Part shown: positions 1 through 37,179 of the stretch, piece by piece
How positions within the stretch are numbered: the stretch's first letter is position 1
How the letters are laid out: each line of letters begins with the position of its first letter
Assembly (NCBI GenBank): GCA_964648295.1
Contig: CAZYNH010000004.1
Span: forward strand, 613 to 64,612
Direction: 5' to 3'
From: an uncultured Bacteroidia bacterium
GTDB lineage: Bacteria; UBA4055
Length of the DNA stretch: 64,000 bases
Notes under the pieces: model-generated
The model's input: only the letters and a program-made list of their open reading frames with translations
Databases searched by the model: none
What the model was told of the DNA's origin: nothing
Made by a program: the position numbers and the translations under genes

Positions 1-923
1 TACTGACATCTCCCTATTGCGACGATATTACAGGCTACGCAGGTCCTTTGAAAGCAGTGTTGATCTCCGGGACGGACGGAAAAATATTGGGTGTGAAGTT
101 ATTATCACACAGAGAAACTCCTTCCTGGATCAGCGGGTTAGAAAGAATAAAATTCTTTGATTCGTGGAACGGGAAGTCAGTTACAGAACTCGCCGATCAC
201 ACCGTAGACGCAGTCTCGGGAGCGACCTATACAAGCAGAGCTGTCGATAAAATTATCAGGAAGCGGGCAGAAATATTTACCGGGAGATCAGAATATGTTA
301 CTTCGGGCCGGAAAACGGAAATCTCTGTATTAAGATCGCCGATTGATGTGGTTCTATATGTTATTTTATCTATTTCCTTGTTAGGAATATTCATAAAAAA
401 AATAAACAAGTACAGGATATTAATACAATTATCGTCTGTTATATTTTTTGGTATCATTTCAGGAAGATTTGTTTCAATATACCTGCTCGAAAGTATTTCG
501 GTTAACGGGATAAAATTATTTACTTCGTGGACAACAATACTCCTGCTTGCTTTCTCGATCCTTATACCGTTTATCTTTAACAGGCATTACTACTGTTATT
601 ATATCTGTCCTTTCGGAGGCGCGCAGACAATTCTTGGAAAACTGCCTGTAAAAAAGATTGTTCCGGGTGCCGGAACTATAAGGTTCTTCAGATTGCTGAG
701 GTTGCTGGTGTTCGTTTCGCTCACGGTACTGATATTACTTAATGTTAAGATCAATCTGACTCTTGTTGAGCCGTTTACTGTTTTCATGTTCTTCTCGGCT
801 TCGGCAATAACAATAACAGGAAGTGCCGTAATATTTATAGCCTCTGTTTTTATTAAAAATCCCTGGTGTATTTACCTCTGCCCCACGGGACAGTTCTTTG
901 ATCTGCTTAAAGACGGTGTGTGA
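1..923 (+). CDS. FMN-binding domain / 4Fe-4S ferredoxin-type polytopic membrane protein (NosR/NirI/NapH-like), 5' partial
   Basis: Frame is open to the window edge. N-terminal FMN_bind-like motif (VDAVSGATYTSRAV), then hydrophobic helices and two Cys motifs (CPFGG, CIYLCPTGQ) typical of membrane-bound ferredoxin-type proteins. Confidence 0.55.
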   Translation, partial: LTSPYCDDITGYAGPLKAVLISGTDGKILGVKLLSHRETPSWISGLERIKFFDSWNGKSVTELADHTVDAVSGATYTSRAVDKIIRKRAEIFTGRSEYVTSGRKTEISVLRSPIDVVLYVILSISLLGIFIKKINKYRILIQLSSVIFFGIISGRFVSIYLLESISVNGIKLFTSWTTILLLAFSILIPFIFNRHYYCYYICPFGGAQTILGKLPVKKIVPGAGTIRFFRLLRLLVFVSLTVLILLNVKINLTLVEPFTVFMFFSASAITITGSAVIFIASVFIKNPWCIYLCPTGQFFDLLKDGV

Positions 924-1011
924 AAATGGATTATTTTTAACTTGATTATGGCTTGTTTTTTTAATATAGTTAAAGAAGCACAATATCGCGCCGATAACGG
1001 AGAATGGACAA

Positions 1012-2598
1012 TTGGTAAGTAAAAGTTCCATAAATGTATTGCTTGTTGAGGAGAACGAAGATCATGCAATTTTGATAAGCAACTCATTTTTCAAGTACGG
1101 AGAAAAATATAATTTAATATCAGCCGATTCATTAAAAAAAGCTTTCGAATATTTTGACGATAAAACAGACATAATCGTAACTAATCTTTATCTGCCCGAC
1201 GGCAGCGGTATTGAGTTTCTTAAGAACAAATCTATTTGTGATGATATTCCTGTTATCGTTCTCGAAAGCTATGTGGACCAGGAAACAGTCGTAAAACTGC
1301 TTAAATCGGGAATTTTTGATTATGTGGGTAAATCAGCAGACATATTTGATTCTCTTCCGGAAAAAATTGATAAATATATTCAGTTGAGGGATTTAAAAAG
1401 GGAAAGGAGAAGGATATCCGAGCAGCAGAACATGCTCAGTATAGCTATAAAACACTCGTCAGAGGTTATTCTTGTTACTGACGAAAAAGGTATTATCGAA
1501 TTTGTCAATCCGGCGTTTGAAAAAACCACAGGTTATTCAGCTGATGAAGTAGTTGGTAAATCTCCCTCAATACTCAAAAGCGGCCAGCACGATAAAAATT
1601 TTTATGATGGCCTGTGGAAAACAATAAAATCAGGAAAACCGTGGAAAGGTCATCTGATAAATAAAAGAAAAGACGGATCAATATTTGAAGAGGACGCTTC
1701 CATCTCCCCTGTTTTTGGTGAAAAAGGTGTAATTACTAATTACGTGGCTTTGAAAAGAGATATTTCCGAATTAATAAATATTGAGAATCAACTCAGGCAT
1801 GCGCAAAAAATGGAAGGCATAGGCACTCTTGCCGCAGGGATTGCGCATGAAATCAATACACCGCTGCAATATTTGAATGACAACACTCTATTTATCAAAG
1901 AATCCTTCAAGGCGATGTGCGAGGCAATATCGGAGATAAAGAAGATAGCTGCCGAAAAGGATGCCGATAATATGGGCAGTAAGCTAAACGATATTATCAG
2001 AAAAAATAAGCTGGAGTACCTTGTTGATGAAATTCCTAATGCTCTGGATGAAAATCTGAACGGGATCAAAATAGTTCGTAAAATTGTAACAGCGATGAAG
2101 AATTTCTCCCATCCCGGGTTGAAGACAATGCAGAAAGCTGATATTAACGAAGCGATCAAGTCCACAATAACTATTACAAAAAATGTATGGAAATATAACG
2201 CGGAAATAGTTACCGATCTTATGGATAAACTCCCCGAGGTGAGCTGTCACATTGGAGACATAAACCAGGTATTCTTGAACATGATAACAAATTCCTGTGA
2301 CGCGATAGCTGAAAAAAGTAAAGATGATAAGGGAACAATCCGAATTTCAACATCCTGCGACAACAGTTATGTTTATATTACTATTGAAGACAACGGAAAT
2401 GGAATTCCAAAAGATATCAAAGACAAAATATTCCAACCTTTTTTTACAACAAAACAAGTTGGAAAAGGGACGGGACAGGGCCTTGCTTTAAGTTATGACA
2501 TTATCGTGAATAAACATAACGGGGAGATCAAGGTTGAATCAGAGCCCGGAACAGGAACAAAGTTTACAATTAAATTACCTGTTGAACCTAATGAATAA
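1012..2598 (+). CDS. Hybrid sensor histidine kinase: atypical receiver - PAS - HisKA - HATPase_c
   Basis: Receiver-like N-terminus ([11 protein letters not shown] ... [13 protein letters not shown]), PAS ([21 protein letters not shown]), H-box ([12 protein letters not shown]), ATPase G-boxes ([20 protein letters not shown]). Start is a TTG in the track. Confidence 0.85.
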
Positions 2599-2618
2599 AT
2601 ATTAAAACGGAGATCAAT

Positions 2619-3821
2619 ATGAACAAAAATTTCAGAATTCTGTTTGTTGACGATGAGGCACCGGTTCTTAACGGTATCAGGCGGATATTTCAGGCAAGAA
2701 GAAGCAACTGGGAACTGGTTTTCGCATCAAGCGGGAAAGAAGCAATTCAGAAGGTTTCTGTAATAGATTTCGACCTGATCGTTACAGACGGAAAAATGCC
2801 CGGAATGAGCGGAAGCGAGATGCTTAGAGAAATGAAGGTCCAGGGACTGACAAAAGATATTCCCACAATAATGCTGACGGGTTATGTTGACGACGACATG
2901 AGAAAGGAAGCTCTTGAGTGCGGGATAATCGAATTTGTCAATAAACCCGTTATTCCCGACGAGTTCGTACTCAGAATTGAAAATGTGCTGAACTTCAAAA
3001 TGATGCATGACGAGCTCAAAACTTCGACTGAGCAACTCACCACCGTAAACAGCGAGTTAAACAGGCTCTACGAGATAATAAGTACTCAAAAGAAAGAACT
3101 TGAAGAGCTTAATGAAATGAAAAGTCAATTCATTGAAATCGCGATGAACGAATTCAGAAGCTCAACAAAAGAGATATCTGAATATACTTCAGGATTAAGA
3201 GGATTGATGAACCCTGAAACAGATAAAGAAAAAATTGTGATAACTGAACGAATTATTCAGAGTGTTTCCGAACTGTCCGGAGTATACAGGAAGATCGTTA
3301 ATATTTCAGATATTACAACCGGAACCTTAAAACTTAATTATTCCCGGTCAAATGTTCTTAAATTTTTCAATGAGCTCATTGAGAATTCATCCCATGTCGC
3401 AGAGAAAAAGAATATTAAATTGATTTCTGAGCATGACAATATCCTGCCTGTAGAAAACTATATGGATACGAACAAAATATGGATAGCTGTTTCAAAACTA
3501 CTTGAAAATGCCGTAAAATTCTCCGAAACTACGAATAAAGTAGATTTTGGAATGAAATATTCGGACAATATGCTTAAGTTCATAATAAAGGACTACGGTA
3601 TAGGGATGAATGATGATCAGATGAGGAATCTGTTCTCATTCAACAACAGTGATAATGAAAACAAACAGGGTGTCAGCCTGCCTCTTGTTAAAAAAATTAT
3701 TGACGCTCATAAAGGTAATATATGCGTTGAGAGTAAATTCGGCGGCGGAACAAAATTTACCGTCTCGATACCTGTACTGGAAACAATTCCCGGAGAACTT
3801 GATAATGGGTCCGAATCATAA
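2619..3821 (+). CDS. Receiver domain fused to a histidine-kinase-like module lacking the phospho-acceptor His (putative pseudo-kinase)
   Basis: Canonical REC (ILFVDDE, LIVTDGKMPGMSG, EFVNKP), coiled-coil linker, DHp-like segment with Asn at the His position (FIEIAMNEFRSS), HATPase N-box and G1 present (LLENAVKFS, IKDYGIGM). RBS GGAG before the ATG. Confidence 0.75.
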   Translation: MNKNFRILFVDDEAPVLNGIRRIFQARRSNWELVFASSGKEAIQKVSVIDFDLIVTDGKMPGMSGSEMLREMKVQGLTKDIPTIMLTGYVDDDMRKEALECGIIEFVNKPVIPDEFVLRIENVLNFKMMHDELKTSTEQLTTVNSELNRLYEIISTQKKELEELNEMKSQFIEIAMNEFRSSTKEISEYTSGLRGLMNPETDKEKIVITERIIQSVSELSGVYRKIVNISDITTGTLKLNYSRSNVLKFFNELIENSSHVAEKKNIKLISEHDNILPVENYMDTNKIWIAVSKLLENAVKFSETTNKVDFGMKYSDNMLKFIIKDYGIGMNDDQMRNLFSFNNSDNENKQGVSLPLVKKIIDAHKGNICVESKFGGGTKFTVSIPVLETIPGELDNGSES

Positions 3822-5601
3822 GCTCAATTCTTTCTTCAAGAACTACTTCGTTTATCTCTCGATCTTCACGATTGAGATAATCTGTGTCGTTGCCTATTTT
3901 ACTTATAAAAATATTAACTTGCTCGCCAATTCCGCGCTTGTTGAAAAATACGGCCTTTCTAAGCTTTATGCTGATGACATTGATCAATTTTTGGAGGCTT
4001 ACAAGGCTACCGTAAGTCAATATTATGTAATGGCGGGCATTGTAATAGCATCGGTTGCAGCTTTTGCCGTAATCATTCACTATCTGATGAAAAAAAGGAT
4101 GACCGATGTCGAAAAAATGAACGCTCTTGAAGATCTGACAAGGGATACTTCAAAGATACTCAAGAGCGAGATCAAATACCGTTCTCTTTTTGAGAACAAC
4201 GGTACCGCTATACTCGTAGTCGGTGACGACGAGAATATAAGCGACTGCAATGAGAAATTCAGCGAACTTATAGGTTATTCCAAAGAAGAGATGATCAGAA
4301 ATATGCATTGGAGTAAAATTGTCCATCATGAAGATATCGAAAGGGTCAAAGGTTACGACAAGCTGAGAAGAACGAATCCCGCCAAGGCTCCTGCCGAATA
4401 TATGATGAAACTGAGAAGGAAAGACGGAACATACAGGCAGGTGATAGTCAATGTCATTGTGCTTCAGGGTACAGAGCAGCTAGCTTCCGTAATAGATATA
4501 ACCGATATGATCGAAAAAGACAGAGCTTTAAGGGAAAATCAGGAACTCCTTAATCAGGCACAGGAGATAGCCTCCATGGGCAGCTGGACCTATTATCCCG
4601 AAAACGATGAGCTTAAAGTATCAAAAGAATTCCTGAAAATCCTGGGTATTGACAAGATCACAGAACCCTTAACTCTGACATATCTGAAAAACCGGTTTGG
4701 GTTTGATCAGTTTTATAATGAAGTGTCAGGATTGAATAACTCCGCAGCCGGCTTAGACAAAGAAATTACTTATCTGGATGAAAAATCGCCTCTGTCAGAC
4801 AAAACCAAATATTTTAAGCTCAAAGCCAGAGCAGGATCAACAGCCGAGAAAGAATTGAAAATTACGGGCATAATTTTGGACATTACAGACAGAAAAAAGA
4901 TCGAAAATGAGATAAATAGGGCAAACGAGGAAATGAAAAACCTTATTTATGTTACAACTCATGATCTGCAGATACCGCTTATCTCAATAGAGGGCTTCTC
5001 TAATCTTCTTTTAAGATCATGCCAGAATATTGAGATCACTCAGGAAGCAAAAGATTACCTTGAAAGAATAAAATCGAATGTTAAAACTATGAGTTCGATG
5101 TTTAAGAATTTCTTTGACATCTCAAAGATTACCGCGATAAAGAATCCTTTTGAATACATAAAAACTTCCGATCTTATTAACCAGGTGGCAAGTGAGATGC
5201 GGATACTGACAGACAAATACGGATCTTCAGTTAAAATTGACTGCGGCAATCTCTTACCCGATATATATGGGGACAGAGAAAATCTTAGGCTCGTTTTTTA
5301 CCATTTGGTTTCTAACGGCATTATTTACGGCGGCAAAACCGTGACTGCCGGTTATGAAAAAAGTAAAGGGTTCTTTATAAAAGACGACGGCACCGGAATA
5401 TGTACAGATGATCTGGAGAGAATTTTCCTGCCCGGAATAAAACTTGAAAAAGAAGAGAATTATGAGGGCTCCGGCATGGGCTTGACTATATGCAGAAAAG
5501 TTATTGAGCTGCACAACGGAAAAATATGGGCTGAATCTGATGGAAAAGGCAAAGGAACAACAATTTTCTTCACACTTAGTAATGAACTAATCAGGGATTA
5601 A
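3805..5601 (+). CDS. Membrane-anchored PAS sensor histidine kinase
   Basis: Start refined from track ORF 3649 to the ATG at 3805 (MGPNHK), 17 nt overlap with the upstream stop. N-terminal TM helices, two PAS-like regions, H-box (THDLQIPL), HATPase (IKDDGTGI, GSGMGLTICRKV). Confidence 0.8.
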   Translation: MGPNHKLNSFFKNYFVYLSIFTIEIICVVAYFTYKNINLLANSALVEKYGLSKLYADDIDQFLEAYKATVSQYYVMAGIVIASVAAFAVIIHYLMKKRMTDVEKMNALEDLTRDTSKILKSEIKYRSLFENNGTAILVVGDDENISDCNEKFSELIGYSKEEMIRNMHWSKIVHHEDIERVKGYDKLRRTNPAKAPAEYMMKLRRKDGTYRQVIVNVIVLQGTEQLASVIDITDMIEKDRALRENQELLNQAQEIASMGSWTYYPENDELKVSKEFLKILGIDKITEPLTLTYLKNRFGFDQFYNEVSGLNNSAAGLDKEITYLDEKSPLSDKTKYFKLKARAGSTAEKELKITGIILDITDRKKIENEINRANEEMKNLIYVTTHDLQIPLISIEGFSNLLLRSCQNIEITQEAKDYLERIKSNVKTMSSMFKNFFDISKITAIKNPFEYIKTSDLINQVASEMRILTDKYGSSVKIDCGNLLPDIYGDRENLRLVFYHLVSNGIIYGGKTVTAGYEKSKGFFIKDDGTGICTDDLERIFLPGIKLEKEENYEGSGMGLTICRKVIELHNGKIWAESDGKGKGTTIFFTLSNELIRD

Positions 5602-5607
5602 TGTAAA

Positions 5608-7476
5608 ATGGCCATGAATTTATTTAGAATAAAAGAATTCCCGTCTGAAAAATCTTATCAGGATGCGGAGCTTCACTTATCAAAACAGGGTAAAAACTTT
5701 GTATTCATATGTAAACTGGAAGGAAAATATTTTGCGCAGTCTGACGATAATATATACGGAGCTTTTGACTCGGTAGAAAATGTAACATTTAGAAAAGAAG
5801 GAAAAATATTCGCCTTCAAGTCTTCAACTTTTTCAAAAAAATTAGGGGTTATAAAAGACGAAAATCAGGACTCTTTATACATTAACAATAAAATATTGGG
5901 CCCGTTCACAAAAATAAGGGATTTCAAAATAAACGACAATCTAACATATTACATATGGTATGAAACCTTCGGGAATTCGTATGTTATTATCAACAATAAC
6001 AAATTGGGAAGCTTTAAAAGCGTATATCAGGTAACTATGGCTCAGGACGGAACATCGTATGCTTTGATATACAAAGACGGCGGAAAAAAATATTTGCGAA
6101 TTAATGATGAAATATTTGGAGGATACGAAGAAATATTCGACTTTGTCTGCGATTATGAAAAAGGTTTTACCGGTTTTGTTTTCAAAAATTTATCAGGCGA
6201 GTATTACGCAAGAATTAATAACACGGAGATAGGTCCGTTCGGGAGTTGTACGGGTCTCAATTATTTTGCGGACATAAATAAATATCAGATTGAATACAAA
6301 AAAGACGCCGCAAATTTCATACAGATCAACGAAAGTGTTTTCTCGGGATCGGATACATATCAGGTAGAATTGATAAACGAATCTCTGGCTGTAATTAAAT
6401 GCTTCAAAGACAAATTGAGTTCTTATAATATCGTTGCCTGGGAGATCGGTTCTTTTAACGATGTTATTGAGTATCGGATAAGTAATTCAGGAAAGAAATT
6501 CATCTTTGTGTATGTAAAATTCAACCAGTATTTTGTTGTAGCCGGTGATTACGAATATGGCCCGTACAAAAAAGTCTCAAACTTATCAATAAGCCCGAAC
6601 GGAGAGAATTATTCATTTATTTTTACAAATCAGCATTACAATTATTATGCCAATATAAACGGGAATACTTACGGACCTTACATCTTAATAAACGAGACAG
6701 CTGTATCTGATTCACCCTCCGCCTTCGGATTTATTTTCCAGAGAAACTCTAAGTATTTTGTTAACATTTCCGACACGATACACGGAATGTATGATTCTGC
6801 TTTAAATTTAAAACTGTCACCCGACGGTTCCCTTTATTCATACATGTTCACTAAAAAAATAAAAATAAATCAGCTTTATTCAAAGCTGCAAAGTTATTTG
6901 TCACTTAATGGTGAAGTATCTGAAAATGACATAGCTATAATAGATCTTCAGAGAAACTCAATGCAAATAGAAGCAATCGTATTTAAAAAGAACTCAAAAT
7001 GGTATATCAGCCTTAACGAGACTATGTTCGGCCCTTATGACCATATAGCTGACTGGAGATTTTTAACCGACGAAACGCTTTTTTCATTCAGGTTCAAAAA
7101 CCTGCAATCTGATTTCTACAATCTTCAAATAAACGGCAGAACATATTATTCCCGAAACAAAAATCTGCAGGTACATTCACCCGTATTCAGCCGGGACGGA
7201 ACAAAATTTGCCTTTATTCATTATTCCGACATCCATTATTACATACAAATATGCGATCAAACCTACGGCCCTTTTGATCATGCCGACCTGCCGACTTTCT
7301 CACCGGACAGTAAAATGGCAGTATTCAGGTACATTGAGTCAAAAAAGACATATTTAAACATAAACGGCATGAAGACCGGACCTTTCGGAGTGGCTGAATA
7401 CACATTCTCTGACGGAAAGCTTTATACATGTTATCTTCAGGACAAGACGATCATAATTGACGAGATCACATGGTAA
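5608..7476 (+). CDS. Hypothetical protein with about 13-14 degenerate tandem repeats of ~37 aa (possible beta-propeller-like fold)
   Basis: Repeat consensus roughly YY-x-IN-x3-YGPY/F ... SPDG-x-Y-F, PD40-like but no confident family match. No signal peptide or TM helix. Last gene of the plus-strand kinase operon. Confidence 0.5.
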   Translation: MAMNLFRIKEFPSEKSYQDAELHLSKQGKNFVFICKLEGKYFAQSDDNIYGAFDSVENVTFRKEGKIFAFKSSTFSKKLGVIKDENQDSLYINNKILGPFTKIRDFKINDNLTYYIWYETFGNSYVIINNNKLGSFKSVYQVTMAQDGTSYALIYKDGGKKYLRINDEIFGGYEEIFDFVCDYEKGFTGFVFKNLSGEYYARINNTEIGPFGSCTGLNYFADINKYQIEYKKDAANFIQINESVFSGSDTYQVELINESLAVIKCFKDKLSSYNIVAWEIGSFNDVIEYRISNSGKKFIFVYVKFNQYFVVAGDYEYGPYKKVSNLSISPNGENYSFIFTNQHYNYYANINGNTYGPYILINETAVSDSPSAFGFIFQRNSKYFVNISDTIHGMYDSALNLKLSPDGSLYSYMFTKKIKINQLYSKLQSYLSLNGEVSENDIAIIDLQRNSMQIEAIVFKKNSKWYISLNETMFGPYDHIADWRFLTDETLFSFRFKNLQSDFYNLQINGRTYYSRNKNLQVHSPVFSRDGTKFAFIHYSDIHYYIQICDQTYGPFDHADLPTFSPDSKMAVFRYIESKKTYLNINGMKTGPFGVAEYTFSDGKLYTCYLQDKTIIIDEITW

Positions 7477-9780
7477 TCAGTTTTTGAGTATTTCTTTTAC
7501 GTTTTCGACTAAAGACTGTCTTGAAAAAGGTTTCTGTAAATAGATCTTATTTTTATCCAGCAGACTGAAATCCATTATAGTGCTTTCTGTATAGCCGGAC
7601 ATATATATGACCTTTGCCTCAGGGTACTTTTCGAGCAGCTTCTCACCTATCTCATCACCATTCATATCCGGCATGATAACATCCGTTATCAACAGATCAA
7701 TTTTTTCGGTTTCGTAAAATTTCATAATATCTTCAAAAGATGAGGCGCAAAAAACATTAAATCCTTCCTGCTCAAGCATTTTAGCCACTACATCCCTTAT
7801 TTCTTTCTCATCATCGATCACTACGATTTTTTCACCGTGCGGCTCTACATTCTCATACTGTTTGATCTCTTTCTCTATATATTCTTCAGCATCTGCTGAC
7901 GGAAGGTATATTTTGAAACAAGTCCCTCTACCGGGTTCGCTGTAACAGGACACATATCCGTTGCTCTGTTTCACTATCCCGTAAACCGTTGAAAGACCCA
8001 GTCCTGTACCCTTTCCCAAGCCTTTTGTGGTAAAAAACGGCTCAAATATTTTGTCCACTGTTTCTTTTGTCATTCCTGTACCGGTGTCAGTTACGGCAAT
8101 CATCGCATAACTTCCGGGTTTAAGTTCAGAGTATTTTTTTATATAATTATCATCTATCTTTACATTCTTAGTCTCTATCGTTATCTTCCCGCCTTTGGGC
8201 ATGGCGTCCCTTGCGTTGATCACCAGATTCATTATCACCTGATCCATCTGTCCTTTATCAGCCTTCACCGGACTGATCCGCGGTTCAAGAACAGCTACCG
8301 TGTCAATTCTCTCTCCGACCAGTCTTTTTATCATTTTCTCAAGATCGTTGACTATTGTATTCAGATCTATTATCTGAGGTTTCAGAACCTGTTTCCGGCT
8401 GAATGCGAGAAGCTGACTTGTCAGTTCGGCTGCCCGCTGCCCGCTTTTTTTTATCTCGATGATATCTTCCGTAAGAGTGTCATCATTCTTCGATCTTGCA
8501 AGTATTAAATCGCAGTTGCAGAGAACCACCATAAGCAGATTGTTAAAATCGTGAGCTATTCCGCCGGCCAAAAGACCAATCGCTTCCATTTTCTGAGATT
8601 GCCTGAACTGTTCCTCAAGCTCTTTCTGTTCAGTGACATCATGTACTATTCCAAGCATTTTTGCGGTCTTTCCGTACCTGTTCTTCTCGAATTGTGCTTT
8701 TACATGAATTTTCCTTAAAGAACCGTCCTTTCTTTTAATCGAATGAATTTTTTCAAAAGGCTTACACTCGTTTATTGCCCTTGTAAATTCGGCGTTGATT
8801 TCATCTCTTTCATCTTCCGGAATGAAACTCATATACAACTTATAGTCCGGTTTTGTTGAAGATTGATCTAATCCAAAAATTCTGTATACTTCATCAGTCC
8901 AGGTAAAATCCATTGTTTTACTGTCAAAGATCCAACTGCCGACATGCACAATTTCCTGTGTTCTTCTAAGCAGAGCTTCATTAGATTTTAATTTATTTTC
9001 AGCTTTGATCTTCATTGTCATATCCAGCCCCACACAGAGTAATCCCGAAATGTCAAAATATTCGTTCTTAATCTGCGACACATGCCATTCGACAAATAGA
9101 CTTCCCCCCTCTTTCTTTGTTATTCTTGTTACACAACTCGAATCGATTTCAGTTGTTAGGCACTTGGTAAAAAAATCGGCGGCTGATTTTTGATAATTAA
9201 GGGACACATAATTTTTTATAAGACTTTTATTCCTTGCTTCTTCCACTCTGTAGCCGGTTATATCTCTGAAAAACTCATTTACATTCACAATGTTGAATTT
9301 CCCGTCGATCACCATTATAATAGCTTTTGCAGTGTTTATTATGTTATCTGACAGCTGTTTTTGTGAGATCAGATTGTCAAGCGCTTTTTTTCTTTCGATA
9401 GAATGCCTTATAGCTCTTATTAGTGCGTCTTTATCAAATTTCCCTTTAATAAGATAATCCTGAGCCCCAATACTAAGCACTTTCTTTATTATCCTTATAT
9501 CGTCACTTCCTGTTAAGGCAATGACCGGTAAAGTGGGATTCTCGTTAATTATCATCATGGGAGCTTCAGCTCCCACGCACCCGGGCAGCCCGAGATCGAC
9601 AAGGGCAATATCATAGCGCATGAACTCAAAATCTTCCAGAGCACTGTCAATATCTTTAAAATGACTTATCTCAGCGTCCGCGTAATCGAGCATTTCTTCT
9701 ATCAGTACCGCGTCTCCGTCATTGTCTTCGACAATAGCGATCTTAAGATTTTTATCCATTTTTACATCTCCGTTCATCAT
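7477..9780 (-). CDS. Hybrid sensor histidine kinase: REC - PAS x2 - HisKA - HATPase_c - REC
   Basis: N-terminal REC (KIAIVEDNDGD, ALVDLGLPG), PAS regions, H-box (IAHDFNNLL), HATPase (VTDTGTGM, GLGKGTGLGLS), C-terminal REC (KIVVIDDE, LLITDVIMPDMNG). True start may be the internal Met at about 9759. Confidence 0.85.
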   Translation of the reverse strand: MMNGDVKMDKNLKIAIVEDNDGDAVLIEEMLDYADAEISHFKDIDSALEDFEFMRYDIALVDLGLPGCVGAEAPMMIINENPTLPVIALTGSDDIRIIKKVLSIGAQDYLIKGKFDKDALIRAIRHSIERKKALDNLISQKQLSDNIINTAKAIIMVIDGKFNIVNVNEFFRDITGYRVEEARNKSLIKNYVSLNYQKSAADFFTKCLTTEIDSSCVTRITKKEGGSLFVEWHVSQIKNEYFDISGLLCVGLDMTMKIKAENKLKSNEALLRRTQEIVHVGSWIFDSKTMDFTWTDEVYRIFGLDQSSTKPDYKLYMSFIPEDERDEINAEFTRAINECKPFEKIHSIKRKDGSLRKIHVKAQFEKNRYGKTAKMLGIVHDVTEQKELEEQFRQSQKMEAIGLLAGGIAHDFNNLLMVVLCNCDLILARSKNDDTLTEDIIEIKKSGQRAAELTSQLLAFSRKQVLKPQIIDLNTIVNDLEKMIKRLVGERIDTVAVLEPRISPVKADKGQMDQVIMNLVINARDAMPKGGKITIETKNVKIDDNYIKKYSELKPGSYAMIAVTDTGTGMTKETVDKIFEPFFTTKGLGKGTGLGLSTVYGIVKQSNGYVSCYSEPGRGTCFKIYLPSADAEEYIEKEIKQYENVEPHGEKIVVIDDEKEIRDVVAKMLEQEGFNVFCASSFEDIMKFYETEKIDLLITDVIMPDMNGDEIGEKLLEKYPEAKVIYMSGYTESTIMDFSLLDKNKIYLQKPFSRQSLVENVKEILKN

Positions 9781-10189
9781 TTTTTTTCATAAATTCGTCG
9801 ATACTCTTAAAAACATCGAAAAAATCGCCGAGATCCATAGGTTTTGTAATATATTCGCTTGCCTTGTACCTGTAACAGCTGTTGATATCGCTCTCGCTGT
9901 TCGAAGTGGAAAAAACTATTACGGGTAATGATTCCGTCTTGGGTTCATTTTTTAGAATCTGAAGAATCTCAAGCCCGGTCATGCCAGGCAGGTTCAGATC
10001 CAGAAGTATCACATCCGGTCTCGGGTTCTTTTCCTCATACAGATATTCGAGAGCCTGATCGCCGTTGTATAGGTGGACAATACGGGATTCAGAACCGTTA
10101 TGAGCAAGAGCTTCCCGCGCCAGCACGGCATCACCCTCGTTATCCTCCACGAGCAGGATCAGATATTTTTTGGTTCTACACATTTTCAT
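9752..10189 (-). CDS. Single-domain response regulator (CheY/Rcp1-like receiver)
   Basis: LILLVEDNEGD, DVILLDLNLPGMTG, VIVFSTSN, YITKP. No output domain. Confidence 0.85.
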   Translation of the reverse strand: MKMCRTKKYLILLVEDNEGDAVLAREALAHNGSESRIVHLYNGDQALEYLYEEKNPRPDVILLDLNLPGMTGLEILQILKNEPKTESLPVIVFSTSNSESDINSCYRYKASEYITKPMDLGDFFDVFKSIDEFMKKNDERRCKNG

Positions 10190-11786
10190 CCCACCTATTG
10201 AGCGTAAAAATGAACCTTGTGCTTTTTCCTTTTTCGGACTCGGCCCGGATCATTCCGCCGTGCCTTTCAATTATCTTTTTTACGATCGCAAGGCCTATAC
10301 CCGTTCCCGGGTATTTGTCCTGCGAATGAAGCCTGTGAAATATTCGGAAAATATTTCCTGTATGTCTCAAGTCCATCCCGATTCCGTTATCTTCAACGGT
10401 TATTCTGACTTTTCCCTGAATTTCCGCCTCCTCAGCTTTTATATGAATTTCAGGAACTAATTCGGTCTTTCTAAATTTTATCGCATTTCCTAAAAGATTC
10501 TGAAACACGGAAATGATCTGCGATCTGTCACCGAGAACAACGGGAAGGCTGTCATAGCTGATCATCGCCCCGGTTTCGACAACAGACGATGATAGGTTTT
10601 TTAAAGCTTCCTTTACCGCTTCGTTCAGATCCACATTACCGAAAGGATCGCGCTGCGTGGTCACCCTCGAATAAGCCAGCAAACCCTGTATCTGGGCCTG
10701 CATTCTCTTGGCTCCGTCAACAGAATAGTTTATGTATGTTTTAGCCTCATCATTCAAAACAGATCCATATTTTTTAATAAGAAGGTCGCTGAATCCCGAC
10801 ACCATTCTCAAAGGCTCCTGAAGATCGTGCGAGACTGTATAGGCGAAGTCTTGAAGCTCCCTGTTGGAATTTTCGAGCTTTTTTTCGTACTCCTTAATTT
10901 CTGTTATATCTACAATCGCGCCTATCAGGCCCGTAATATTTTCCAGATGGTCAACAAGAGCGGCTTTGTGAAATACTACATTCCTGATTCCTCCGGACTT
11001 ATTAGCAAACTTCCACTCGTAGATCTGCGTTCCGCCTTTTTCAAAAAGTTCTTTGTCCATTTCATCGTATTTGAGAGCGATCTCTTCAGGGGCTATATCG
11101 TAAACGGTTTTTCCTATGATCTGATCTTCTTTCATTCCCAGCATTCTTGCGAATTCGCTGTTACAGCCCAGATACATTCCTTTTGAATCTTTATAGAATA
11201 TCGGAAGGGGTGCGTTGTTCAAAAGCGTTCTGAACAGCTCTCTGCTTTCCTCAAGCTTTATCCTGGCATCAACAAGTTCCGTTACATCTCTGAATACCCC
11301 GTAGCTGGAAACGAATTTACCGTCATCGTCGTAATTCGGACTTACTGTAACTTCAATAATTTTGGTATTTCCTTTGTTCGTTACTATCTTAAGTTCATAT
11401 TTTTCAGAAAAACCTTTTTTTCGATTTTCAGTACCTTTTTTGATCTTTTGCATTTCTTCCGAGTTGAGGAATTCGGATAAATTTTTCCCTATCAGATTTC
11501 TGCTTTCGCATTCGAATATGATCTCGGCCGCATTGTTCGCATATAAGAAAAATTCGTTCTCGTCTACAATGCCTATACCGTCTCCTACGGTTTCAACGAG
11601 CTTGTGATATTTTCTCTCTTTTTCGATCAGCTCTTTTTCTGCCGATATTCTTCTTTCAAGCTCCACCCTGTATGCCTTATTTTTCCTGATCAGATCCCTT
11701 CTGACGGACAGAAGCCAGATAAGAGACAGTACAAGTATAAGTGAAAGAAACATTTCTAAAAAAATGTGATCAGGGAAAATCGTCAT
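10176..11786 (-). CDS. Membrane-anchored PAS sensor histidine kinase
   Basis: N-terminal TM helix, two PAS regions, HisKA (YTVSHDLQEPLRMV), HATPase (VEDNGIGM, GTGIGLAIVKKI). 4-nt overlap with the upstream gene. Confidence 0.85.
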   Translation of the reverse strand: MTIFPDHIFLEMFLSLILVLSLIWLLSVRRDLIRKNKAYRVELERRISAEKELIEKERKYHKLVETVGDGIGIVDENEFFLYANNAAEIIFECESRNLIGKNLSEFLNSEEMQKIKKGTENRKKGFSEKYELKIVTNKGNTKIIEVTVSPNYDDDGKFVSSYGVFRDVTELVDARIKLEESRELFRTLLNNAPLPIFYKDSKGMYLGCNSEFARMLGMKEDQIIGKTVYDIAPEEIALKYDEMDKELFEKGGTQIYEWKFANKSGGIRNVVFHKAALVDHLENITGLIGAIVDITEIKEYEKKLENSNRELQDFAYTVSHDLQEPLRMVSGFSDLLIKKYGSVLNDEAKTYINYSVDGAKRMQAQIQGLLAYSRVTTQRDPFGNVDLNEAVKEALKNLSSSVVETGAMISYDSLPVVLGDRSQIISVFQNLLGNAIKFRKTELVPEIHIKAEEAEIQGKVRITVEDNGIGMDLRHTGNIFRIFHRLHSQDKYPGTGIGLAIVKKIIERHGGMIRAESEKGKSTRFIFTLNRWDENV

Positions 11787-13288
11787 ATATTTTTATCCTT
11801 CGCCGAATTTGGAATGCTGAATTTTAAAACAGCGCCTTTATTTTTGCCGTCCGATTCTGCCCATATCCTTCCGCCCTGTCTTTCGATTATTCTTTTACAA
11901 AGAGCGAGACCGATCCCGTCCCCGGGTTTATCAGCGGCTTCCGAGAGCCTTTTGAATATAACGAATACCTTTTCAATATCCTCCTCTTTGATCCCGATAC
12001 CGTTATCCTTTACATATATTATCACTTCATCACCCTGCGAATTTTTCAAGTCCGATCCTATCTCAATTAAACATTTTTCATCTTCTTTCCTGAATTTTAT
12101 CGCGTTCCCTATCAGGTTTTGAAAAACATGCGTGATCTGATCCGGTTCTACCATTACATCAGGAAGGTCTTTGTATCTGATCTCAGTCCCTGTTTCCTGA
12201 ATTGTCAAGTTGAGATTATAAACAGCATTCTTCAGAGGTATAGACAGATTGATCAGAGTCTTTTCTTTCTTTCTCGAACCGATCCTTGAGTATTCGAGAA
12301 GTCCTCTGACGAGATTCTGCATCCTTCTCGTGTTGGTTACAATATAATCAAGGTAACCCTTAGCTTCATCATTCAGCCTATGGGTATGTTTAAGTTCGAG
12401 AAGCTGCGAAAAACTCGATATGATCCTTAACGGTTCCTGAAGGTCATGCGATGCAATAAAAGCGAACTGCTCAAGCTCTTTGTTGGATGCCTCAAGTGCT
12501 TCCTTTTCCTTTATAAGTTCCTTCAGGAGCTGTTTTTTATCGGTTATGTCCTGCGACAGCTTTAAAAAATTCGTTATGTTTCCTTTATCGTCAAATATCG
12601 GTCCGACTGTTGCTCCTTCCCAGTAAAGTTCTCCGCTTTTCTTTCTGTTCCTGAACTCCCCTTTCCATATATTTCCGGATTTTATTACATCCCACAATTC
12701 TTTATACTCATTTTCGCTCATTTCTCCGGACTTCAGAATTTTGGGATTTTTGTAAATAACCTCTTTAAAAGTATAACCTGTAACCTGAGTAAAGCGCGGA
12801 TTCACATATTCGACATTTCCATTTGTATCGGTCATTAAGATAATGGACGGGCTCTGGTTGACCGCGGCAGTCAGTTTTAAAAGTTCCGAATGTTCTTTCG
12901 ACGCTTTTTTTCTATTCTCGTATTCTTTGATCTCTCTTTCTATCGTCGGCACAAGTTTCCTCAGCTTGTCTTTCATTATGAAATCATTTGCGTCGTTGCG
13001 CATGAGATCAACGGCTTTTTCTTCTCCTATAGTGCCTGAAACAAGTATAAAAGGTATCTCAGTATCTTTTTCCCGTAAAATCAAGAGAGCTTCCTCTCCG
13101 TTAATGTCGGGCAGATTAAAATCTGAAAGGACTATATCGGGTTGTTTTTCATTCAAAAATTTCCTGAATTCTTCTTTATTCTTACAAATAGAGATTTCTT
13201 TTTCAGTCTTGAGCTTTTTTAACTCATACAGCACAAGATCAAGGTCGCTCTCGTTGTCTTCAAGTATTAGTATGCGTATCTTATCCAT
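11783..13288 (-). CDS. Hybrid histidine kinase: REC - PAS - HisKA - HATPase_c
   Basis: REC (IRILILEDNESD, IVLSDFNLPDING), PAS (YVNPRFTQVTGYTFKEV), HisKA (IASHDLQEPLR), HATPase (VKDNGIGI, GDGIGLALCKRI). Confidence 0.85.
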   Translation of the reverse strand: MDKIRILILEDNESDLDLVLYELKKLKTEKEISICKNKEEFRKFLNEKQPDIVLSDFNLPDINGEEALLILREKDTEIPFILVSGTIGEEKAVDLMRNDANDFIMKDKLRKLVPTIEREIKEYENRKKASKEHSELLKLTAAVNQSPSIILMTDTNGNVEYVNPRFTQVTGYTFKEVIYKNPKILKSGEMSENEYKELWDVIKSGNIWKGEFRNRKKSGELYWEGATVGPIFDDKGNITNFLKLSQDITDKKQLLKELIKEKEALEASNKELEQFAFIASHDLQEPLRIISSFSQLLELKHTHRLNDEAKGYLDYIVTNTRRMQNLVRGLLEYSRIGSRKKEKTLINLSIPLKNAVYNLNLTIQETGTEIRYKDLPDVMVEPDQITHVFQNLIGNAIKFRKEDEKCLIEIGSDLKNSQGDEVIIYVKDNGIGIKEEDIEKVFVIFKRLSEAADKPGDGIGLALCKRIIERQGGRIWAESDGKNKGAVLKFSIPNSAKDKNI

Positions 13289-13296
13289 GAAATTCC

Positions 13297-13746
13297 TTAT
13301 TTCTGCACAGTTTTGTTCAGAACCATCCAGTAATAGCCGATTTCTTTTATCGAATTACTGAACTTGCTAAAATCAATAGGCTTGACAATGTAGCTGTTCA
13401 CTCCGAGTTCATAAGCACTAACGATATCTTTTTCCTCATTCGATGAAGTAAGCACGACCACAGGGATTTTTTTCGTCCGTTCATCTTTCCTGACGGCTCT
13501 TAAAACCTCTATCCCGTCAACTTTCGGCATTTTCAGATCAAGCAGGATGACTTTCGGCGGGCATTCGATATCCCTGCCTTCATATCTGCCTGTTCCAAAA
13601 ATGAACTCCAAAGCTTCCTCGCCGTCTTTTACCCTTAAAAGGTCATTGGCGAGTTTATGTTTCTTCAGCTCTCTTATAGCCAGTTCGGCCTCGTCATCAT
13701 TATCCTCGACCATCAGTACCATCACCTGCTTATACCCGTTCTTCAA
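13297..13746 (-). CDS. Single-domain response regulator (CheY/Rcp1-like receiver)
   Basis: VLMVEDNDDE, VILLDLKMPKVDG, VVVLTSSNEE, YIVKP. Confidence 0.85.
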   Translation of the reverse strand: MKNGYKQVMVLMVEDNDDEAELAIRELKKHKLANDLLRVKDGEEALEFIFGTGRYEGRDIECPPKVILLDLKMPKVDGIEVLRAVRKDERTKKIPVVVLTSSNEEKDIVSAYELGVNSYIVKPIDFSKFSNSIKEIGYYWMVLNKTVQK

Positions 13747-16733
13747 CTTTCACCTCCGTTTTTTTCCTCAAATGGAATTTTTATATAGAAAGTTGCCCCG
13801 TTACCGTTCTTACTTTCTGCGTCCAAGCTCCACCCGTGCTTTGCGGCCACTTTTGCCACTATTGACATTCCGACGCCCGTTCCGGGAAATTCCTCCGCGG
13901 TGTGGAGCCGTTGGAAAACTTCGAATATCTTGTGCTTATATTTCTCATCGAAACCGGCCCCGTTATCTTTTATCGATATAATATGAAATTTTCCGTCATT
14001 TTCATAATTAATTCTGATCCCGGCAACATCTTTTTTATTCGTAAATTTAACGGCATTTCCGATGATATTCTGGAACATCTGCATTACAAGCGTACGATCT
14101 GCCTGGATATCAGGGATTTTTTCATTAACCGAAAAATCGAATTTCCTGTCCTTTTCTCCGTCCGTTACCTCCTCAAATATCTTTTTAAGAAGACTGACCG
14201 TATTGATCTTCTGCGGTTTTATAGTGCTTCTCCCCACTCTCGAATACTCGAGCAGGTCGTCAATAAGCCTCTGCATTTTAGATGTATTATCCACTATCTT
14301 CTGCATATATCTCTTGCCCTCGTCGTCAAGGTCTTTGCAGTAATCATCTTTAAGAATATTAGCGAAACCGAGAATTGCCCGTAAAGGCGCTCTTAGGTCG
14401 TGAGATACAGAGTAGCTGAAGGCCTCAAGTTCTTTGTTCGCGGCGGTCAGCTTGGCATTGATTTTCTCAAGTTCGCTTCTCGCTTCATTAACATCTTCGA
14501 GTAGTATAACCAGAGATTCCTGAGCTGAAGTAAGTTCCCTGTTCTGCTTTTCGAGCCTTGCTGTCCTTTCCCTGACTTTTTCTTCCAGTTCGGCATTAAG
14601 CTTTTTTAATTCTTCCTGCGCATTTTTTCTCTCTTTAATTTCACTATTTACATCTTTAAGGATATTGAGCATTGCTGCTTTATTTTTTTCAAGTTCTTTA
14701 AGATAAGCATCAATCCTTAATTCATCTTTCTTCCTTTCTGAAATATCTGAAAAAATTGTGATAGTTCTTTCATCTCCGTTAGAGTCCAGATAAATATTTG
14801 ATGTGAGCATGAGCGGGATTTTACCTCCGCTTTTTCCTAATGCGTTTATTTCACCTCTAAAAGATCCTTTTTTACTTCTGATCTCGAGTGATTCAATGAA
14901 AGCAGGGTCTTTTATGTCAAACAGCTTGTCTCTTCCAAGTTCAGTAATCTCCTTCTCAGACCTTCCGAGAATCCTGCAGGCTTCAGGATTCGCACTCAGG
15001 ATCGTCCCGTCAGGCCTGGTCATAAATATACCTTCGCTTGCCGAATCGAACACCTGACGGTATTTTTCCTCGCTTTCCTTTAGAAGAATATTCTTCTGTT
15101 TGAGTTCTGTTTCGTTTAAGATCAACAGCTCTTCGGCTATTCTCCTTGTCTCGATCTCCTCTCTCAGTTCTTTTGTTTTCTTAGTGACCTGATCATTTAA
15201 TGACCTGTTCCAGAAAACGAAAATAGCAATAACAACAATTGCCGGTATCAAAAAGAAAAGTAAATACTTTATGATCTCCTTTAGGCTCAAAGGTTTTTCA
15301 GGTCCGTAGGTTCCGAACCATTTTATATGTATATTCCTTATTTCTCCGGATGTTTTAAGATTGTTGATGGCGTTGTTTATATTGCTTAAGAGCACACTAT
15401 TGCCCTTTTTCACGGCATAGCAGAATTCAGCGCTGTGTATATTTTCCCCGCCGTAAACAATACCGGGAAGTTCCTTTTTATTGATTACATACATAGCAGT
15501 TAGGTACGAAAGCAGGGCATACTCAGCATCACCGGATATAAGCATCATAAGAGCTTCTTCATGCGAACCGGCAATTTTCAGATTTTCACCTAACCCTGCA
15601 AGAACAGCCTTTTCGTGCATAATGTCGCTGTTTTCAACGGCGGTATATTTATCTTTCAGATCATTTATTGAACGGGGTATCGTCGTTCCTTTTTTAGCGA
15701 AGATCTTGTATGAAGAAACTGCGAAAGGAACGGAAAAATCCATGTATTCCGCTCTTATATCTGAGTATAAGATCCCATGTATCGCGTCATATTCACCCCG
15801 TCTGAAATTTTCCATCAGTCCTGACCACTTTTCGAGCCTGAGATCAAGAAGCAATCCAAGCTCTTTTGCCATAGCCCGCGATATATCAACATCAGGACCG
15901 GAGGCATTTCCTTTTTCATCAATAAAACTGTACGGATGGTAATTGGAGTCACCGGCAATGATTATCGTCTGTTTTCCGATCTCGAATGAAGGAGTGAACC
16001 ATTTTTCATGGAGTTTATCGTATGTGCCGTTTAAAATAACAATCGAAAGTCCTTCATTTATTTCTTCGAGAAGTCGTTTATCACCTTTTCTTACAGCAAA
16101 GCAGAATTTCTGTTGGAAGTCGTCTATACTTATATCTAGCGGTTCAATATTTTTGATGCCCAGATCATTTATCATACTCAAGCCCATTACTTTCTGGGTA
16201 ACGACTATATCGCATCCGCCTTCGGAAAGTAAACGGAAGGCATCTTCAAATTTTGAAACTGTGATAATACTGTCGGACAGCTTTACCCTTCGCGCAAACT
16301 CCTCGGCATTATCGCCTTTCATCACGGCGAGGACAGCTTTTTTTAAGCCATCTCTATTTTTGAACCCGGTCCCGTCACTCCTCGCAAAGACAGCTCCGTG
16401 ATAGATCATATAAGGAAATGTAAAATCGTAAAAAGGTTCTCTTTCCGGTGTTCTGCCGACGAGAGGGAGCACATCAAGTTTACCGTCAGCAAGCTCCTGT
16501 TTAATAATATTCCACTCGTCCACTTTAAAAGTAATTTCATGCTTCGCAGCTTCGCAGGTCGCCTTAAGCAGTTCAACAGAAAACCCGCCGGCCGTTCCGT
16601 CCGGATTTATTATACAAAAAGGCGGATAGTCATACTCGGAAGCTGATCTTAAAATCTCTGATCCCGCTTTCTGACCGAACAGTGCCGAGATCAGCACGAT
16701 TAGGTATAAAAAAGATCCGTATTTCCTGCGCAT
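13743..16733 (-). CDS. Sensor histidine kinase with two periplasmic solute-binding (SBP family 3-like) domains, TM helix, PAS, coiled coil, HisKA, HATPase_c
   Basis: Signal peptide; duplicated SBP_bac_3-like segments (EYDYPPFCIINPDGTAGGFSVEL and GDSNYHPYSFIDEKGNASGPDVDI); TM helix; PAS; HisKA (YSVSHDLRAPLR); HATPase (IKDNGAGF, GTGVGMSIVAKV). Confidence 0.85.
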   Translation of the reverse strand: MRRKYGSFLYLIVLISALFGQKAGSEILRSASEYDYPPFCIINPDGTAGGFSVELLKATCEAAKHEITFKVDEWNIIKQELADGKLDVLPLVGRTPEREPFYDFTFPYMIYHGAVFARSDGTGFKNRDGLKKAVLAVMKGDNAEEFARRVKLSDSIITVSKFEDAFRLLSEGGCDIVVTQKVMGLSMINDLGIKNIEPLDISIDDFQQKFCFAVRKGDKRLLEEINEGLSIVILNGTYDKLHEKWFTPSFEIGKQTIIIAGDSNYHPYSFIDEKGNASGPDVDISRAMAKELGLLLDLRLEKWSGLMENFRRGEYDAIHGILYSDIRAEYMDFSVPFAVSSYKIFAKKGTTIPRSINDLKDKYTAVENSDIMHEKAVLAGLGENLKIAGSHEEALMMLISGDAEYALLSYLTAMYVINKKELPGIVYGGENIHSAEFCYAVKKGNSVLLSNINNAINNLKTSGEIRNIHIKWFGTYGPEKPLSLKEIIKYLLFFLIPAIVVIAIFVFWNRSLNDQVTKKTKELREEIETRRIAEELLILNETELKQKNILLKESEEKYRQVFDSASEGIFMTRPDGTILSANPEACRILGRSEKEITELGRDKLFDIKDPAFIESLEIRSKKGSFRGEINALGKSGGKIPLMLTSNIYLDSNGDERTITIFSDISERKKDELRIDAYLKELEKNKAAMLNILKDVNSEIKERKNAQEELKKLNAELEEKVRERTARLEKQNRELTSAQESLVILLEDVNEARSELEKINAKLTAANKELEAFSYSVSHDLRAPLRAILGFANILKDDYCKDLDDEGKRYMQKIVDNTSKMQRLIDDLLEYSRVGRSTIKPQKINTVSLLKKIFEEVTDGEKDRKFDFSVNEKIPDIQADRTLVMQMFQNIIGNAVKFTNKKDVAGIRINYENDGKFHIISIKDNGAGFDEKYKHKIFEVFQRLHTAEEFPGTGVGMSIVAKVAAKHGWSLDAESKNGNGATFYIKIPFEEKNGGES

Positions 16734-36491: not shown

Positions 36492-37093
36492 ACTACTGCC
36501 TCAAGATATGGCTGCATCACTTTAACAACACGGCTCATTTTTGCGTATTCATATATTTTATTTACATCCATTCTGCCTCGTTCACGGTAAAACTTCAGAG
36601 CTTCGATCGCTACATCAAGACCGATCTTATTTCTGAACCTGAAACAGTCCACAAGTGTTTTTTCCGGATCATAAACTTTTATTTTTACTCCGTCAATTGT
36701 ATGCTCTTCGATCCCGGCTGAATAAATATCCGGTTTCAGATAATGCACATCAAGACGAATTCCGTTTACTGTCGGAGGTCTGGATCTTTCGATTATGGCG
36801 ATACTTACAGATCTTTGTATCTGTGTTGTCATTCTATGAAAAACGAGTGCGGATATCAGAAAAATTACTGCTTTTGATGATTTTGAGCAAACAAGCTGAA
36901 TATCCGGATAAGAAAAGTTCTGAGCTGATGCGAGTCTGTAAACTCCTCTCGTAATTTTTTCGAAAATACCCTTCTTTACCATCGAAGAAAGGTGATAACG
37001 GCTTATACCAGACCTGACAGCTTCAGACATTCTCATCTGACCGCCATGTTCTCTGAATATTTCCAGCATTTTTTTAGTCATAACATTGAACAT
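36488..37093 (-). CDS. AbiEi-family antitoxin / transcriptional regulator
   Basis: N-terminal wHTH-like segment (EAVRSGISRYHLSSMVKKGIFEKITRGVYRL); size and position immediately upstream of the AbiEii-like gene. Confidence 0.7.
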   Translation of the reverse strand: MFNVMTKKMLEIFREHGGQMRMSEAVRSGISRYHLSSMVKKGIFEKITRGVYRLASAQNFSYPDIQLVCSKSSKAVIFLISALVFHRMTTQIQRSVSIAIIERSRPPTVNGIRLDVHYLKPDIYSAGIEEHTIDGVKIKVYDPEKTLVDCFRFRNKIGLDVAIEALKFYRERGRMDVNKIYEYAKMSRVVKVMQPYLEAVV

Positions 37094-37179
37094 AATGTTT
37101 GTAATTATACATAACTAACGACAATATGTATAATATTTTACTATAAGTCAAGCAATATTTATAATATTTTACGCTTGAA

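Follow-up and report, generated by a model that had tools for sequence, protein, structure and literature searches.

What is left for a receiver domain to do when the aspartate on which it should be phosphorylated is missing, and yet the domain stands at the head of a complete histidine kinase? This question is raised by a gene, here called HK1, near the start of a 64,000-nucleotide (nt) stretch of DNA (the window) from an uncultured Bacteroidia bacterium (GenBank assembly GCA_964648295.1, contig CAZYNH010000004.1, positions 613 to 64,612). A sequence-only reading of the window had proposed that the N-terminal receiver of HK1 carries asparagine at the phospho-acceptor position, and that the following gene holds a second degenerate phosphotransfer domain. 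Both proposals are borne out by the analysis below. We give a probability of roughly 0.6 to the reading that the HK1 receiver is an aspartate-less pseudo-receiver serving as a phosphorylation-independent conformational module, with the PAS domain that follows it as the regulated input. The features of HK1 to which the text refers are these:

1012 to 2598, + strand: HK1, an open reading frame (ORF) of 528 amino acids (aa); a histidine kinase of the order pseudo-receiver, PAS, dimerisation and histidine phosphotransfer (DHp) domain and catalytic ATP-binding (CA) domain, from Pfam and from orthologues of the same architecture
1030 to 1347, + strand: receiver-fold domain, aa 7-112; matched by PF00072, with a (βα)5 fold in the AlphaFold (AF2) model; the pseudo-receiver
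1048 to 1053, + strand: acidic pair after β1, Glu13 (DD1) and Glu14 (DD2), aligned to E8/D9 of KdpE
1183 to 1185, + strand: Asn58, codon AAT, at the phospho-acceptor Asp position by profile, pairwise and structural alignment
1264 to 1266, + strand: Glu85, codon GAA, at the conserved Thr/Ser position
1321 to 1332, + strand: Tyr104 (the K-3 switch aromatic) to Lys107 (the conserved Lys), both kept, by alignment
1336 to 1452, + strand: α5 and its unbroken helical extension (aa 109-147), reaching the PAS domain in the AF2 model; a candidate signalling helix
1447 to 1770, + strand: PAS domain, aa 146-253 (Pfam PAS_9, 2.7e-19), of the MmoS / NifL-PAS1 type
1831 to 1872, + strand: H-box with His279 (CAT, 1846-1848), invariant in the orthologue alignment
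2257 to 2586, + strand: CA domain, aa 416-525 (HATPase_c, 4.6e-27), with N, G1, F and G2 boxes

Two conserved receiver residues are replaced in HK1

The Pfam family Response_reg matches aa 9-110 of HK1 with 44.3 bits (cut-off 30.2), spanning profile positions 1-102 of 111. There is no aspartate in the acceptor column of this profile alignment, and the manual alignment of the sequence-only reading was not shifted. When HK1 was compared with the PDB by phmmer, the segment containing Asn58 paired with DLIILDLGLPDGDGIEF of KdpE, and 'VIVLES' paired with 'VIVLSA' of the same protein. Since both pairings are free of gaps, Asn58 stands at the phospho-Asp position and Glu85 at the Thr/Ser position, whose usual residue makes contact with the phosphoryl group. 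A receiver-only search was also made of 1.84 billion representatives, and 203 receiver domains from the best 150 of these were aligned locally with phmmer. Asp was found opposite Asn58 in 196 of the 203 and Thr or Ser opposite Glu85 in 198; among these best 150 representatives, Glu at the Thr/Ser position occurs only in the clade of Asn-bearing HK1 orthologues described below (the Asn clade). The subfamily is a narrow one, with only two 50%-identity representatives, both from the Asn clade, scoring below 1e-30.

In the AF2 model Asn58 directly follows β3 (54-57), consistent with the acceptor position, Glu85 ends β4 (81-85) and Lys107 directly follows β5 (103-106). Five strands and five helices are present in order, the remaining elements before the last helix being β1 7-12, α1 16-27, β2 33-38, α2 41-47, α3 66-78 and α4 90-99. 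The predicted local distance difference test score (pLDDT) is 87.9 for full-length HK1 and 89.6 for the receiver alone, the latter with a predicted template modelling score of 0.84, and Foldseek gave the receiver model template modelling scores of 0.83-0.85 to the receivers of PhoB, KdpE and PhoP. A shifted alignment is ruled out by the KdpE match, the aspartates facing Asn58 and the strand positions of the model.

It is clear that both substitutions seen in the sequence alone are correct: Asn at the phospho-acceptor column, and loss of the usual Thr from 'VIVLESY', where Glu85 is the residue concerned, a change from Thr that requires at least two base changes. The canonical motifs with which the HK1 block had been compared are also real, VILLDLNLPGMTG in the ORF at 9752-10189 (- strand) and LIVTDGKMPGMSG in the gene after HK1 (gene 2). 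As to the other residues of a canonical receiver, Lys107 is present and invariant in the orthologue alignment, and the Mg2+-binding pair is acidic at both positions in HK1, yet four clade members have Lys or Gly at DD2. A domain that matches PF00072 but has no phospho-Asp falls within the published definition of an aspartate-less receiver (ALR) or pseudo-receiver, the class that had been proposed for it. That the HK1 receiver is non-phosphorylatable is therefore a strong inference from its sequence.

The substitutions are conserved and arose on one branch

A full-length search gave 25 proteins that share the HK1 architecture, the named ones being proteins from metagenome-assembled genomes (MAGs) of Candidatus Delongbacteria; judged by these names, the source of HK1 would be a bacterium of the Delongbacteria type. 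The sequence-only reading had asked whether the Asn is conserved in orthologues; it is, with Asn at the acceptor and Glu at the Thr position in 20/20 members of the clade (19 orthologues and the window protein, mutual identity 61-93%). The four orthologues of the sister clade (P0021/22/24/26; 54-57% identity) have Asp and Thr, with 'VEDD' after β1; together with the outgroups they all carry Asp, and all but two of this combined set also carry Thr. In a neighbour-joining tree made from the PAS and kinase columns only, with the receiver left out, every Asn/Glu sequence falls in one clade, sister to the Asp/Thr clade (the Asp clade), and the outgroups carry Asp. A single concerted change, Asp to Asn with Thr to Glu, accounts for this distribution. 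Synonymous codons are found at both sites within the Asn clade, AAT and AAC at site 58 and GAA and GAG at site 85; the sister-clade sequence that was examined has the Asp codon GAT at the acceptor site.

Selection was measured as the proportions of non-synonymous and synonymous differences (pN and pS) rather than as dN/dS, since synonymous sites are saturated even at 86-87% protein identity (whole-gene pS 0.58-0.69). In the two closest pairs with DNA, pN in the receiver was 0.04-0.07 against a pS of 0.37-0.78, a pN/pS of about 0.1, and pN was similar in the PAS domain (0.06-0.10) and the CA domain (0.07-0.08). Purifying selection acts on the receiver of HK1 as strongly as on its PAS and CA domains. 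Within the Asn clade, identity is 64% for the receiver, 75% for PAS and 74% for CA; between the Asn and Asp clades the values are 44%, 61% and 65%. That the receiver diverges between the clades more than PAS and CA do indicates a functional shift and not decay.

Within the Asn clade, relaxation is concentrated at positions of the phosphorylation chemistry: DD2 is Glu in 12 sequences, Asp in four, Lys in three and Gly in one, and the positions two and four residues after the acceptor (D+2 and D+4) are variable, with the D+4 Pro lost in eight. The conserved parts are α1, the surroundings of β3 and the α4-β5-α5 region; conservation is lowest in the α2/β2 region. A sequencing error or pseudogene is ruled out by the conservation in orthologues and by pN/pS, and the Asn/Glu substitution is a stable, selected feature.

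In the model, a continuous helix joins the pseudo-receiver to a PAS domain ahead of a complete kinase

Residues 109-147 are assigned as helix throughout by DSSP in the AF2 model (pLDDT 87-90), with L128, I135 and L142 at heptad spacing. At positions 119, 123 and 135 the Asn clade has Ile, whereas Ala, Asn and Ala/Gly stand there in the Asp clade; the isoleucines would favour constitutive packing of the helix.

The closest solved relatives of the PAS domain, by alignment over the whole domain, are MmoS (3ewk, 1.7e-33) and PAS1 of NifL (2gj3, 4.5e-22), and a 'PW.G.L.N+RKDG' region is common to the PAS domains of all three proteins. The NCBIfam nifL model aligns to aa 144-267 of HK1 below its cut-off; neither HK1 nor gene 2 is matched by any NCBIfam family above the cut-off. 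Both structures, 3EWK (MmoS) and 2GJ3 (NifL PAS1), are FAD-bound, and the HK1 PAS domain is probably flavin-binding and of the redox type. The domain contexts of MmoS and NifL differ from that of HK1; the likeness is one of PAS sequence, and the cofactor is a predicted one.

The kinase core of HK1 is complete. His279 is invariant in the orthologue alignment (A1) and present in at least 90% of the wider alignment (A3), and the N, G1, F and G2 boxes, including GKGTGQGL, can be read from the translation and are conserved among the orthologues. Pfam HisKA has no match to the DHp region of HK1, and nearly all of the listed HK1 homologues are likewise without HisKA in precomputed domain lists; this kinase subfamily is poorly covered by the HisKA model. 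An 'FSHPG' motif and a strongly conserved H-box are common to HK1 and its thousands of relatives.

HK1 belongs to a conserved module with a His-less partner

HK1 is the second of five tightly packed genes on the + strand, followed by a convergent kinase gene:

1 to 923, + strand: membrane protein with FMN_bind and Fer4_5 domains (Pfam), NosR/NapH-like, cut by the window edge; it precedes HK1 in every Asn-clade locus
2619 to 3821, + strand: gene 2, with a receiver, a DHp domain with Asn177 at the His position and a CA domain with degenerate G2 box; it begins 20 nt after HK1
3805 to 5601, + strand: gene 3, a transmembrane-PAS-HisKA-HATPase kinase with a likely ATG at 3805, overlapping gene 2 by 17 nt
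5608 to 7476, + strand: a repeat protein of 622 aa whose gene begins 6 nt after gene 3; a conserved member of the module
7477 to 9780, - strand: a hybrid kinase, REC-PAS-PAS-HisKA-HATPase-REC (REC, receiver), with both receivers canonical; convergent with the operon

The receiver of gene 2 is fully canonical, with Asp11, Asp12, Asp57 (2787-2789), Thr87 and Lys109. Its Asn177 (3147-3149) aligns both with the phospho-His of HK853 in 'SHELR' and with that of a paralogue in 'IASHDLQSP', as the sequence-only reading had supposed in calling the gene His-less. Where 'HELRT' would be expected the gene has 'NEFRS', in which the Glu after the Asn, and a Ser at +4, are kept. In its CA domain the N and G1 boxes are present, the G2 box has changed from 'GxGxGL' to 'QGVSL' and the ATP lid is shortened. 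Gene 2 therefore looks like a Rec-controlled, His-less pseudokinase. It lies 15-22 nt after HK1 in six distinct related loci. In the Asp clade its orthologue has Asp at the phospho-His position; because gene 2 has no His in either clade (Asn or Asp standing there), the loss of this His is older than the change from Asp to Asn in HK1. A coupled loss of the two residues is ruled out on the same ground. The description of two adjacent degenerate phosphotransfer domains is thus accurate, with the two losses separate in time.

The order of the five genes is identical at six Asn-clade places, representing four orthologues. Two Asp-clade loci likewise have gene 2 after HK1 and the repeat protein nearby, but there the position of the FMN_bind gene is taken by a hybrid kinase (L001:6066-7985, L008:6464-7984), which precedes HK1 by 16 nt. 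The upstream neighbour of HK1 thus differs between the clades along with the acceptor residue, so that the loss of Asp and the exchange of this neighbour coincide. The convergent hybrid kinase of the window shares 36% identity, over the kinase core, with the one directly upstream of Asp-clade HK1. Orthologues of gene 3 have 596-603 aa. The repeat protein, which has repeated '...IN...YGPF/YGPY...' units, is 35% identical to that at L001:10795-12708 and is found beside the kinases in either clade; it matches no Pfam family above the cut-off, and TmcD_fam (aa 449-582) only weakly. A promoter and terminator scan of positions 1-10300 gave counts at the shuffle expectation (35 against 31.8 and 10 against 7.3), with no terminators between the genes. 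The MmoS/NifL-like PAS domain, the flavin/iron-sulfur neighbour gene and the weak TmcD-like match together suggest a redox input to HK1, which is plausible from these sequence likenesses.

Beyond the module, positions 1-27500 hold an unusually dense run of at least 11 genes for PAS, kinase and receiver proteins. One of these, at 11783-13288 (- strand), is a paralogue with the same REC-PAS-HisKA-HATPase order as HK1 and a canonical receiver (ED, 'LSDFNLP', 'VSG', 'MKD'), which makes it a handy internal control for HK1. The run also includes kinases with solute-binding domains (13743-16733 and 25093-27495), a kinase with an NMT1 domain (20645-23221), and PAS-only proteins without a kinase core at 16746-18284 and, with a 5TMR-LYT membrane domain, at 18324-20195. 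Further on, at 35598-38112 (- strand), an AbiEii toxin / AbiEi antitoxin pair and an ORF6N-domain gene coincide with the lowest GC of the window (0.356, with 0.44-0.51 in the surroundings); they probably make up a small islet, either mobile or concerned with defence.

Comparison with known receivers and pseudo-receivers

By published rates, 2-6% of bacterial receivers have no acceptor Asp, and with at least six receivers in the window one such domain would be expected in about 11-31% of comparable windows. Its presence is therefore unremarkable taken alone; it is the conservation that makes it real. Asn is the second most common acceptor replacement in ALRs (16%; Maule et al., 2015, PMC4395418), and it stands at that position in 6% of all pseudo-receivers (Bourret et al., 2025, PMC12632262). 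Of 9,153 bacterial pseudo-receivers, only 0.10% have Glu at the Thr/Ser position (PMC12632262). The HK1 receiver shares with the ALR class its PF00072 match, (βα)5 fold and missing phospho-Asp; it differs in the very rare Glu, in an origin that can be dated to one branch and in having a canonical sister clade.

RitR of Streptococcus pneumoniae has Asn53 at the acceptor position, Asp81 at the Thr position, a Glu9/Lys10 acidic pair and Tyr100, and in its crystal structure Asp81 points to Asn53 in an active-like rotamer (PMC4395418). The Asn, an acidic residue at the Thr position, Glu at DD1 and the retained Tyr are shared with HK1, and the Lys of RitR at DD2 is matched by three HK1 orthologues. 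However, RitR is a DNA-binding regulator under Cys disulfide control, with Asp at the Thr position, while HK1 has Glu there and a PAS-kinase output. As RitR is not among the PDB sequence matches listed for HK1, the likeness is convergent.

In LvrB, phosphorylation of the receiver leads to a 4-5-5 receiver dimer, then to a coiled coil of the linker helices, and so frees the catalytic domain (Agustoni et al., 2026, PMC13269768). HK1 has the architecture of this type of kinase, a complete DHp-CA core with phospho-His and an N-terminal receiver linked to it by helix, with a PAS domain inserted between; LvrB chains are among the Foldseek matches for both the full-length and the receiver-only HK1 models. 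The two differ in that phospho-Asp is the defining input of LvrB, while HK1 has neither the phospho-Asp nor a direct junction of receiver and DHp domain.

ShkA of Caulobacter and CikA of Synechococcus resemble HK1 in having a non-phosphorylatable receiver fold inside a histidine kinase. Their pseudo-receivers, which regulate the kinase core, lie C-terminal to it and bind c-di-GMP or quinone; that of HK1 is N-terminal and coupled by helix to a PAS domain, and the likeness is by analogy. The less common features of HK1 are thus the Glu at the Thr position, the N-terminal, helix-coupled place on a PAS kinase and the canonical sister clade.

How the pseudo-receiver may act

In the reading that we favour, HK1 is a cytoplasmic PAS histidine kinase whose receiver would no longer be phosphorylated by a kinase upstream of it and, because of this, the ancestral Rec-controlled input of the kinase would have become hard-wired. 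The pseudo-receiver would serve as a conformational or dimerisation module, acting through its conserved α4-β5-α5 face and the long α5/linker helix, and would hold the signalling helix in one state, possibly an activated-like one. The carboxylate of Glu85 would lie close to where the phosphoryl group once bound, in a pair with Lys107, as in the Asn53/Asp81 pocket of RitR; it may be tolerated because the change of Asp58 to the neutral Asn removes charge repulsion. The regulated input would be the MmoS/NifL-type PAS domain, probably flavin-binding and redox-responsive. HK1 would then autophosphorylate on His279 and transfer the phosphoryl group to the canonical receiver of gene 2, which would be the most likely acceptor. 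In the Asp clade, HK1 with its upstream hybrid kinase fits an LvrB-type scheme as far as sequence goes. In the Asn clade this input by receiver phosphorylation would be inoperative, since the acceptor site has no Asp. The RitR precedent and the more hydrophobic helix 109-147 suggest, by analogy, an activated-like state.

Several points weigh against this reading. The on or off state is not readable from an AF2 monomer: the model fits BeF3-activated PhoB slightly better than the apo form (root-mean-square deviation 2.0 against 2.9), but this is unmatched in PhoP and KdpE. The pseudo-receivers of ShkA and CikA inhibit their kinases and do not activate them (PMC12632262). The conserved α1 face would equally fit docking on another kinase, and the partly intact pocket (Glu13, Glu14, Lys107, Tyr104) may be a residual metal or ligand site. 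The PAS domain is assigned as flavin-binding from its homology to the FAD-bound domains of 3EWK and 2GJ3, and the phosphotransfer from HK1 to gene 2 is proposed from adjacency.

A more specific form of the favoured reading, to which we give a low probability, is that Asn58/Glu85 and the hydrophobic α5/linker amount to a phosphomimic moved to the Thr position, which would lock the coiled coil of the kinase 'on' and make the locus a one-way relay. If this is true, the phosphoryl group would pass from the His of a pseudo-receiver kinase to the Asp of a receiver on a His-less pseudokinase, a relay hard-wired in one direction, and the Asn clade and its canonical sister would be a natural before/after experiment for LvrB-type activation.

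Among the alternatives, the one that survives best, though we think it unlikely, is that the pseudo-receiver docks on a two-component partner without phosphate and so scaffolds or titrates a multi-kinase module. The DHp domain of the former phosphodonor (the hybrid kinase), the gene 3 kinase or a heterodimer with the gene 2 receiver could each provide the partner, although these candidates come from the context of the locus only. The strong conservation in the Asn clade of α1 ('NEDH.ILIN') and β5-α5, which are the usual docking and dimerisation faces, is what such a role would require; HK1 also lies within a conserved cluster of at least four kinases and receivers, and heterodimer and binding-competitor models exist in the literature for the pseudo-receivers CmrT and WhiI/BldM. 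The genes flanking the hybrid kinase are not arranged alike in the two clades, however, and because the HK1 receiver is tethered to its own kinase by a continuous helix in the AF2 model, an intramolecular role is favoured over docking.

We find it harder to credit that the domain is a ligand-regulated, autoinhibitory pseudo-receiver, clamping the DHp or CA domain until a small molecule binds in the remodelled pocket or on the α4-β5-α5 face and releases it, in the manner of ShkA with c-di-GMP or CikA/KaiA with quinone. This is the only mechanism class shown for pseudo-receivers inside histidine kinases (PMC12632262; 10.1101/675454). The locus has a redox flavour (the FMN_bind/Fer4_5 gene, the MmoS/NifL-like PAS and the weakly TmcD-like neighbour), and Asn58, Glu85, Lys107 and both Glu of the acidic pair are invariant or nearly so, as would suit a binding pocket. 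On the other hand, DD2, D+2 and D+4 around that pocket vary within the clade, and α2/β2, the quinone-binding region of CikA, is where the HK1 receiver is least conserved. No known ligand-binding motif was recognised in the receiver, although no dedicated motif test was made.

It is very improbable that the receiver still works through a cryptic acceptor, with Asn58 deamidating to Asp or another residue being modified. Asn followed by Leu is a slow context for deamidation, which counts against this. Asn at the acceptor position can revert to Asp in this way (Maule et al., PMC4395418), and the acidic pair and Lys are in place in HK1; but Thr/Ser has become Glu in 20/20, four sequences have Lys or Gly at DD2, the D+4 Pro has gone from eight, and the Asn clade has no hybrid kinase in the place, just before HK1, where the Asp clade has one. 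An artefact or vestige, whether from sequencing or assembly error, a decaying domain or a true start downstream of the receiver, has next to no chance of being the explanation: the start codon is TTG and no receiver of the window has a lower Pfam score (that of gene 2 scores 79.9 bits), but GGAG precedes the start by 9 nt, AF2 predicts the fold with confidence, and the same two substitutions recur in 20 independent metagenome or MAG sequences with a receiver pN/pS of about 0.1.

Significance

How bacterial pseudo-receivers switch, or why they are kept, is largely unknown according to the 2025 review (PMC12632262), which cites only ShkA and CikA as pseudo-receivers inside histidine kinases. The HK1 receiver is a well-defined further case of a pseudo-receiver or ALR, from an uncultured phylum; it changes no concept and will not surprise specialists. 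Its value is as a tidy comparative system, in which one concerted double change sets the Asn clade apart from a canonical sister while the other genes of the module, among them gene 2 for the His-less Rec-pseudokinase partner, are conserved. Reversion of the two residues, or a swap of receivers between the clades, would tell whether the domain has been locked on, locked off or repurposed.

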